DNA of 26,478 nucleotides from a virus (IMGVR_UViG_2721755724_000002); one strand, 5' to 3'. Shown: positions 5,241-5,612, counted from the first letter of the stretch. Numbers and translations: made by a program. The notes: generated by a model not told the origin, from the letters alone.

Positions 5241-5315
5241 GCTGGAGCGGGTAGCGGGAATCGAACCCGCATCATCAGCTTGGAAGGCTGAGGTAATAAC
5301 CATTATACGATACCC
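5241..5315 (-). tRNA. tRNA-Gly (anticodon UCC)
   Basis: Reverse complement GCGGGTATCGTATAATGGTTATTACCTCAGCCTTCCAAGCTGATGATGCGGGTTCGATTCCCGCTACCCGCTCCA folds as a cloverleaf: 7-bp acceptor GCGGGTA/TACCCGC, anticodon loop CTTCCAA, T-arm GCGGG-TTCGATT-CCCGC, encoded CCA; near-identical to host glyT as I recall it. Confidence 0.85.
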
Positions 5316-5318
5316 GCA

Positions 5319-5394
5319 TATGGTGCCGACTACCGGAATCGAACTGGTGACCTACTGATTACAAGTCAGTTGCTCTACCTACTGAGCTAAGTCG
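5319..5394 (-). tRNA. tRNA-Thr (anticodon UGU)
   Basis: Reverse complement GCCGACTTAGCTCAGTAGGTAGAGCAACTGACTTGTAATCAGTAGGTCACCAGTTCGATTCCGGTAGTCGGCACCA: acceptor GCCGACT/AGTCGGC, D-stem GCTC/GAGC, anticodon stem ACTGA/TCAGT with loop CTTGTAA, encoded CCA; one mismatch in the T-stem as I folded it; resembles host thrU. Confidence 0.75.
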
Positions 5395-5612
5395 GCACAG
5401 AACCGCCACCGAGGTATCGAATCTCACACCTACCACTTAAATGATGGTCGGCTCTTCCCGATGAGCAGATGGCGGTGTTCCCTTAATGGGATAGCTGTAT
5501 TCAGTAATCCGTTATTCGAATACACCATCGAAGGAACAAGCGCATTATATACATTCACGATTCGTGTTATTAGCTAATTGCGCACAACACAGCTTCATTT
5601 AACGAAATGCCC

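Follow-up and report, generated by a model that had tools for sequence, protein, structure and literature searches.

The locus examined here raises a question that is simple to state: what is the role of two tRNA genes, closely resembling host genes, that are carried together with a tRNA-like sequence in the late region of an E. coli prophage, and what has become of the third member of the group? The answer depends on the genomic setting of the cluster, on the condition of each of its elements, on comparison with related phage arrays and on the demand that phage genes place on the tRNAs concerned, and these are addressed in turn.

Genomic setting of the tRNA cluster

The stretch of DNA analysed, hereafter the window, comprises 26.5 kb of IMGVR_UViG_2721755724_000002 and is a Rac-type lambdoid prophage in which exactly two tRNA genes are called by ARAGORN. 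Its segment 5150-5620 shows 100% identity to a locus of E. coli ET82 annotated essD, rzoD, trkG and ynaK. The features relevant to the argument are the following:

3383..4556, minus strand: lysis cassette (Pfam, with ET82 and RM10740 annotation)
3383-3859, minus strand: Rz (Pfam Phage_lysis)
3844-4341, minus strand: lysozyme (Pfam Phage_lysozyme)
4341-4556, minus strand: S21-type holin (Pfam Phage_holin_2_1)
4949..4967, minus strand: second intrinsic terminator, between the tRNAs and the holin gene (terminator scan)
5243..5317, minus strand: tRNA-Gly(UCC) with encoded CCA, near-copy of host glyT (ARAGORN, Rfam)
5321..5396, minus strand: tRNA-Thr(UGU) with encoded CCA, identical to host thrU (ARAGORN, Rfam)
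5399..5475, minus strand: third element, very probably a pseudo-tRNA and decayed member of the 'slot-2' family (family model R1)
5625..5650, minus strand: intrinsic terminator, tR'-like, directly downstream of the Q-like gene and followed by a T run (terminator scan)
5731..6273, minus strand: Q-like late antiterminator gene (DUF1133 / Phage_antitermQ; Pfam)

Read along the minus strand, genes for a DUF1367 protein and a YbcO-type nuclease are followed by the Q-like gene, the terminator, the third element, Thr and Gly, after which come two more terminator-like hairpins, the S21-type holin, lysozyme and Rz genes and finally trkG. The Q-like gene (543 nt) matches Pfam DUF1133 at 2.9e-108 and, more weakly, Phage_antitermQ at 7.4e-06, and its annotation reads DUF1133 protein in strain ET82 and antitermination protein Q in phage vB_EcoS-683R6. 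According to the terminator scan, the terminator at 5650-5625 consists of a 10-bp stem with 6 GC pairs followed by UUGUUUCUGG, while that at 4949-4967 (-) reads ACCGCCUCCACCGGGCGGU and then U8. The cluster thus has the layout of a lambdoid late-operon tRNA cluster, being located on the late strand between a Q-like gene with its terminator and the holin gene, and the position between a Q-proximal terminator and the lysis cassette that an earlier note on this DNA had assigned to it was confirmed on both sides. After the lysis cassette, the place of the head genes is taken by trkG (Pfam TrkH), and because no head or tail genes follow the cassette in the window the prophage is probably defective.

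Two intrinsic terminators, at 4895-4919 (+) and 4949-4967 (-), face each other between the tRNA cluster and the holin gene, and the ORF that spans both of them (4813-5223, minus strand) lacks any Pfam match and probably does not represent a gene. A consensus promoter scan did not locate the late promoter. A promoter inside the cluster was considered and rejected, given that the sole consensus match (5329-5302) would start transcription within the Gly gene and that consensus matches in the region are fewer than in its shuffles.

The intact tRNA-Thr and tRNA-Gly genes

The claim that two adjacent minus-strand tRNA genes lie 3 nt apart (spacer 5318-5320), both with an encoded CCA, is supported by ARAGORN, which accepts both, by Rfam RF00005 (67.8 bits for Gly and 73.8 bits for Thr, against a gathering score of 29) and by the sequence itself. 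Both genes possess the attributes of canonical bacterial elongator tRNAs, including, besides the Rfam score and an ARAGORN call with its anticodon, 7-nt anticodon loops (CUUGUAA in Thr and CUUCCAA in Gly) with U33 and a purine at position 37, T loops of the sequence UUCGAUU, and 3' ends ACCA and UCCA, respectively. The suggested resemblance to host genes proved to be very close, as Thr is identical to thrU of the E. coli K-12 derivative DH1 at 76/76 positions and Gly matches glyT at 72/75, the differences being C6U with a compensating G66A in the acceptor stem, and C19U in the D loop.

In the host, these genes belong to the thrU-tyrU-glyT-thrT-tufB operon, and the prophage pair (Thr equal to thrU, Gly 96% identical to glyT) retains their order and orientation. 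On the other hand, tyrU, thrT and all host spacers are absent from the prophage, and while thrU and glyT are separated in the host by 8 nt, tyrU and 116 nt, with thrT following, only 3 nt lie between the two prophage genes. Capture of the whole host operon was rejected on these grounds, and since no homology to host flanks or spacers was seen, the pair is not a simple recent capture of that operon.

The prophage pair as such is already known, as its junction occurs and is annotated in E. coli genomes and phage records. A 61-nt probe across the Thr-Gly junction, run against 5426 complete E. coli genomes, found it at 1027 places in 853 of them, with at most 5 per genome, and the matched junctions are annotated 'tRNA-Thr | tRNA-Gly', so that hundreds of E. 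coli genomes carry the annotated pair; the allele of the window itself is present in 38 of the 853 carrier genomes. Phage records with the pair include phi467, JLK-2012, vB_EcoS-683R6 and PhiR47_1.

The third element and its relatives in four-gene arrays

The third element received no ARAGORN call and no RF00005 match at E <= 10. Its minus strand adopts a cloverleaf-like fold (-28.2 kcal/mol, z = -2.3) with an acceptor helix, a D arm GCUC/GAGC, a 5-bp anticodon stem closing the 7-nt loop CAUUUAA with A33, and a shifted T arm whose stem is flawed (UGAGA/CCUCG, with A53 opposite C61). The tRNA-like sequence described in the earlier note, with its D arm, paired acceptor stem, poor T arm and A33, is therefore present, although the proposed interval, 5400-5478, reaches about 3 nt too far at its 5' boundary, as the acceptor stem begins at 5475. 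Canonical elongator features are replaced in this element by C8, A33, A53 opposite C61, and UCU where CCA would be expected.

Its origin is indicated by related prophages, such as PhiR47_1 and that of E. coli EC15, in which the same slot holds four tRNA genes, Ile(CAU)-Lys(UUU)-Thr(UGU)-Gly(UCC), the first of which ARAGORN calls 'Met'. The third element is homologous to the second gene, X, of this Ile(CAU)-X-Thr-Gly array, being about 80% identical to the 'Lys' gene, compared with 98-100% for Thr and Gly, and it would accordingly descend from the tRNA that lies between tRNA-Ile(CAU) and tRNA-Thr(UGU) in intact relatives. The array, which also occurs in many IMG/VR contigs, shares with the window the 3-nt Thr-Gly spacer and the 2-nt spacer (GT) that joins the second gene to Thr after a 4-nt 3' tail. 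It differs from the window in that the latter has no detectable tRNA-Ile and that its second gene is degenerate and of another subtype (CAUUUAA versus CCUUUAA). A remnant of tRNA-Ile(CAU) upstream of the third element was not supported, as the local alignment of 5476-5625 (-) to the Ile gene scores 13 against a shuffle mean of 13.5, with 316/500 shuffles scoring as high.

The relationship was quantified with a covariance model, R1, built on 63 distinct members of the slot-2 family (backbone CCGCCAC..GUGGCGG) from which the lineage of the window was left out. With filters off, the third element matches R1 over its full length at 59 bits (E 2.9e-14), a significant score that places it in the family and exceeds those of the two genuine tRNAs next to it (44 and 33 bits), but lies below the 77-95 bits of intact members and is the lowest of any member. 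Synteny agrees with this assignment, in that the distance from the end of its acceptor stem to the start of Thr is 7 nt, as in most of about 180 family matches.

Ten changes fall at columns that are at least 95% conserved in the slot-2 family, i.e. C7U, U8C, A9U, two anticodon-stem positions, C49U, G53A, a T-loop G and two of the three CCA bases, so that the element is not an intact member. Its closest intact relatives, 82% identical, share the loop CAUUUAA with A33 and possess U8, a clean T stem and CCA; the third element no longer has U8, the G53-C61 pair or an encoded CCA. In its anticodon stem it departs from these relatives and is still fully paired, including a compensatory change from A29-U41 to C29-G41, which indicates that the gene evolved under structural constraint before it broke. 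Within the lineage of the window, one allele still has G53 (L043, L066) and another lacks 8 nt spanning the variable loop and T stem (L007, L039; present in seven E. coli genomes), while the copy in strain A10 has lost its anticodon arm, with Thr and Gly broken too. Across 7 lineage loci, Thr and Gly have 0 variable sites in 151 nt and the third element has two independent lesions; these loci are closely related and the sample is too small for the zero variation to prove selection.

On account of the ten changes at family-conserved positions and the deletions in sister alleles, the third element is very probably a pseudogene, in agreement with the earlier suggestion of a possible pseudo-tRNA, to which the missing ARAGORN and Rfam calls and the lowest R1 score also point. 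Some features speak against this reading: the acceptor and anticodon stems remain fully paired, with the compensatory change, the T loop is good, and E. coli is able to add CCA post-transcriptionally, so that the element may retain some function.

A family with a conserved body and a variable loop

The family to which the third element belongs was sampled by a backbone pattern search, which yielded more than 120 viral contigs and 53 species-representative Enterobacteriaceae genomes; it is on this pattern that the sample rests, as an exact-sequence pattern for the Thr-Gly junction found only 11 loci in the species-representative genomes. Members at slot 2 combine an almost invariant tRNA body and an encoded CCA, conservation of the acceptor stem, GCUCA and UUCGA being by construction since the pattern fixes them, and in the family alignment the base pairs of the proposed cloverleaf are formed in 97.9% of cells, and both the anticodon stem and the T stem show double changes. 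The anticodon loop, in contrast, varies in sequence and in length (5-8 nt), and its position 33 is often C or A. Canonical loops are CUUCUAA or CUCCUAA (Arg); the Lys-like CCUUUAA, with C33, occurs in more than 55 contigs; CAUUUAA, CAUAUAA and CAUUGNN have A33, the first of them being common to the third element and to intact, CCA-bearing relatives; and about 25 different loops have 5 or 6 nt, for which ARAGORN reports two-base anticodons, besides some with 8 nt. Among 46 distinct short-loop loci from several genera, the body shows about 93% pairwise identity outside the pattern-fixed parts whereas the loop shows 52%, the random level also found in unalignable flanks, a contrast that arises partly by construction, given the constraints that the search pattern and the regular expression for the subtype impose on some positions.

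Two explanations of the variable loop were tried and rejected. The first, an RNA partner for the loop, finds no support in the frequency of its reverse complement in same-strand flanks (1.5 kb upstream and 2.5 kb downstream), which is present at 40/92 loci compared with a mean of 40.7 for permuted loops (p = 0.64), i.e. without excess. The second, active hypermutation of the loop, is at odds with the finding that loops never differ between two loci whose flanks are closely similar over at least 1 kb on each side; pairs of loci with closely similar flanks differ by single bases or by one deletion.

Members of the family are also present outside the annotated tRNA complement. A short-loop gene between tRNA-Ile and tRNA-Thr in E. 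coli FAM21845 (L197:2501-2574) is left unannotated by RefSeq. An 81-nt member between yahL and yahM occurs in 5177/5426 complete E. coli genomes (about 95%); it has a CCA end, the loop CAGGAUU and 4 inserted nucleotides following the D stem, and its R1 score is 75.2 bits. This element overlaps with the start annotated for yahM and is itself unannotated; the Rfam tRNA model does not detect it, and ARAGORN calls it 'tRNA-Ser(gga)'. In E. coli B C2566 (L196:3001-3081) a TTGACA-type hexamer lies about 115 nt upstream of this element. In the prophage of E. coli A10 (L006:2490-2700 and 3299-3376) the whole array is decayed, Thr having an internal deletion and UCA for CCA, and Gly a UUC anticodon and an annotation as tRNA-Glu; a further member of the family (71.8 bits), which ARAGORN calls tRNA-Stop(UUA), is located about 600 nt downstream. 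In the searchable literature no paper describing the slot-2 family or the yahM element was found, and nothing specific on ileZ/argN.

Tentatively, slot 2 may house an undescribed family of prophage late-operon genes in which purifying selection acts on the body and CCA and the loop is free, and in which many members are not decoders but either nuclease-evading Lys-like tRNAs or decoys and competitors for PARIS AriB, OLD, HepS and PrrC that are made in bulk late in infection, the remnant in the window being a decayed member. Conceivably, these RNAs may act as decoys, as nuclease-evading tRNAs or as processing scaffolds, or may be slowly dying genes. If they are expressed and do not decode, they would constitute a new kind of phage counter-measure or processing device. 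Beyond the window itself, the dead gene is of value as a lead to this large family, whose body is conserved and whose loop runs free, and to a chromosomal copy in most E. coli.

Comparison with other phage tRNA clusters

Lambdoid phages had been said to carry tRNAs at this late-region position, which is borne out by PhiR47_1, with four tRNAs in the slot, and by phage 21. The tRNA genes ileZ-argN-argO of Shiga-toxin phages presumably occupy the same late-region slot as those of the window. Among the arrays found here were some (L005 and others) in which Ile(CAU) precedes an Arg(UCU) gene that shares its backbone with the third element. The window differs from ileZ-argN-argO arrays in having neither an Ile nor an Arg gene, nor downstream toxin genes.

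In its curated record, phage 21 has pR', a Q-binding element, a terminator, tRNA-Asn and tRNA-Thr a few nt apart, the S21 pinholin, a SAR endolysin and spanins, and its annotated pR' and terminator have the same layout as the window's terminator at 5625-5650. The late-region tRNAs of phage 21 (OL657228, L195:3592-3747) are Asn(GUU) and Thr(UGU), whereas the partner of Thr in the window is Gly. According to the PARIS paper both Asn(GUU) and Thr(UGU) are targets of AriB; Thr(UGU) is also the main target of P2 OLD. Unlike the Thr of the window, Thr21 of phage 21 differs from thrU at 26/76 positions, including the anticodon stem, and has been shown experimentally to be OLD-resistant (PMC12445682). 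Phage T5 offers a further comparison, in that its tRNA-Lys, tRNA-Thr and tRNA-Asn variants neutralise PARIS and are likewise phage-borne copies of nuclease-targeted tRNAs, and the Lys-like relatives of the third element appear to be changed at positions relevant to AriB. The T5 tRNAs are, however, diverged and shown to be resistant, while the Thr of the window has the host sequence and its Lys-like gene is dead.

Probable codon supply and the role of the pair

The reading that we regard as probable is that the locus is the late-operon tRNA cluster of an apparently defective Rac-type prophage, in which host-like Thr and Gly genes add to the dose of ACA and GGA decoding and the third element is dead. 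Judging by their position and by the annotation of phage 21, Thr and Gly would owe all or most of their transcription to Q-dependent passage of RNA polymerase through the terminator. RNase P and 3' trimming enzymes would then release the tRNAs from the late transcript, the spacers of 2-3 nt leaving no room for anything else.

In E. coli, glyT is the only decoder of GGA, and both thrU and glyT are single-copy genes in the host. ACA is decoded by thrU, the only tRNA of this species with a UGU anticodon (PMC12445682). The pair would therefore raise the supply of the only tRNAs reading these two codons. In this regard, a comparison of codon usage between PhiR47_1 late genes or window ORFs and a 34-gene host sample gave odds ratios for ACA of 3.2 (PhiR47_1 late genes) and 4.7 (window ORFs), and for GGA of 2.3 and 2.8, respectively, all of them upper estimates because the host sample is rich in highly expressed housekeeping genes. 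Relative to genome-wide averages, the enrichment of ACA and GGA is nearer 1.6-2 fold. By the same measure AUA (6-15) and AGA (4.8-12), which are read by the Ile and Arg genes of sister arrays, are enriched in phage genes, and AAA (0.9-1.3) is not. The codon-usage comparison that had been proposed as a check is thus consistent with codon supply. A point against this explanation is that the window holds few late genes for the tRNAs to serve. Given that no head or tail genes follow the lysis genes there, the phage probably draws little benefit from the pair today and carries it as a leftover; the host may have in it a spare copy of thrU and glyT.

Alternative explanations

The pair could also be a neutral relic, i.e. 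functionless by now and intact through recent decay of the prophage or through gene conversion from chromosomal thrU and glyT. Such a view, which we hold to be a less likely but credible account, is in keeping with the presence of trkG rather than head and tail genes after the lysis cassette, with the decay of neighbouring array members in the lineage of the window and of Thr and Gly themselves in strain A10, and with the exact identity to thrU, which is what conversion would yield. The three differences between Gly and glyT, with their compensatory pair, argue instead against recent conversion and for maintained pairing, and the relic view is further weakened by the two independent lesions of the third element against none in Thr and Gly among the 7 loci, and by the retention of the tight pair at 1027 places in 853 genomes. 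A pair that supplies ACA and GGA decoding remains the preferred reading.

A second alternative concerns defence. It has been shown that P2 OLD, PARIS AriB and HepS all cleave tRNA-Thr(UGU), HepS being encoded by Gifsy-1 (PMC13043305), and late-operon tRNAs could replace or replenish host tRNAs destroyed by the nucleases of resident prophages or satellites and so keep translation going. The tRNA-Thr that phage 21 carries at this position is OLD-resistant and able to rescue cells (PMC12445682). In the commonest E. coli array the Lys-like X adjoins Thr(UGU) and carries C16, G39, U40 and U41; considering that, at the equivalent positions in host tRNA-Lys, the changes U16C, U39A and A41C block or reduce cleavage by AriB, this X might be expected to resist AriB. 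Moreover, codon supply does not account for a Lys tRNA, given that phage genes show no enrichment of AAA. Counter-defence is therefore a serious alternative for the array as a class.

For the window itself this explanation is unlikely. Its Thr shows no substitution relative to thrU at nuclease determinants and retains both the paired CUG(28-30)/CAG(40-42) motif of the anticodon stem and the U36AAUC|A41 site, which according to the literature are determinants of cleavage by P2 OLD and AriB. The literature likewise indicates that over-expression of host tRNA-ThrU gives little or no protection against OLD. In addition, the Lys-like partner is dead in the window, and tRNA-Gly(UCC) is the main target of none of the nucleases in the cited papers. 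Because Thr has the host sequence, the pair adds dose and cannot be a nuclease-resistant replacement. The window thus presents a lambdoid prophage with an exact host version of the very tRNA attacked by P2 OLD, PARIS and HepS, a copy that can only add dose, and it is mainly as a clean negative case that this Thr is useful, set against the current idea that phages carry tRNAs in order to escape tRNA-cutting defences.

Finally, it is improbable that the third element still works as a tRNA-like RNA that does not decode, in the manner proposed for its relatives with 5-8 nt loops, such as a decoy for nucleases or a scaffold on which the neighbouring tRNAs are processed, for although the family as a whole has a conserved body with a loop at random-level identity (0.52) across the 46 loci, and a cloverleaf with covariation, and the window copy keeps its acceptor and anticodon stems, its fold and a loop also found in intact relatives, this copy is changed at ten family-invariant positions (U8, G53 and CCA among them), has the lowest R1 score of any member and coexists with deletion alleles in the same lineage.

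Other content of the window

Besides the tRNA cluster, the window contains several other elements. Rfam matches to the RalA antitoxin sRNA (24744-24922, minus strand, 218 bits) and to a sok-type antitoxin RNA (7882-8057, minus strand, 105 bits) indicate the presence in the prophage of a RalR/RalA module and of a toxin-antitoxin module of the hok/sok type. ORFs of the size of recE and recT are present, as is an ORF at the far end where an integrase would be expected, the latter being placed by position alone. An 853-aa ORF at 8491-11052 (-) has an nSTAND1 NTPase domain and, as a weak match, a restriction-endonuclease fold of the Mrr type at its N-terminus, and has the appearance of an Avs-like defence gene that the prophage carries as cargo; PADLOC gave no match to known defence families for the large neighbouring ORFs, including this one. 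A fragment of an IS3-family transposase (rve integrase core) lies within the prophage at 11947-12543 (+), and the adjoining 534-aa ORF at 12738-14342 (-) has no Pfam or PADLOC match. At the left edge, beyond trkG and a ParB_N (ynaK-like) ORF at 1072-1650 (-), a gene for a ZnuA-family periplasmic metal-binding protein occupies 1-915 (+), which may represent either further non-phage cargo or the boundary of the prophage.
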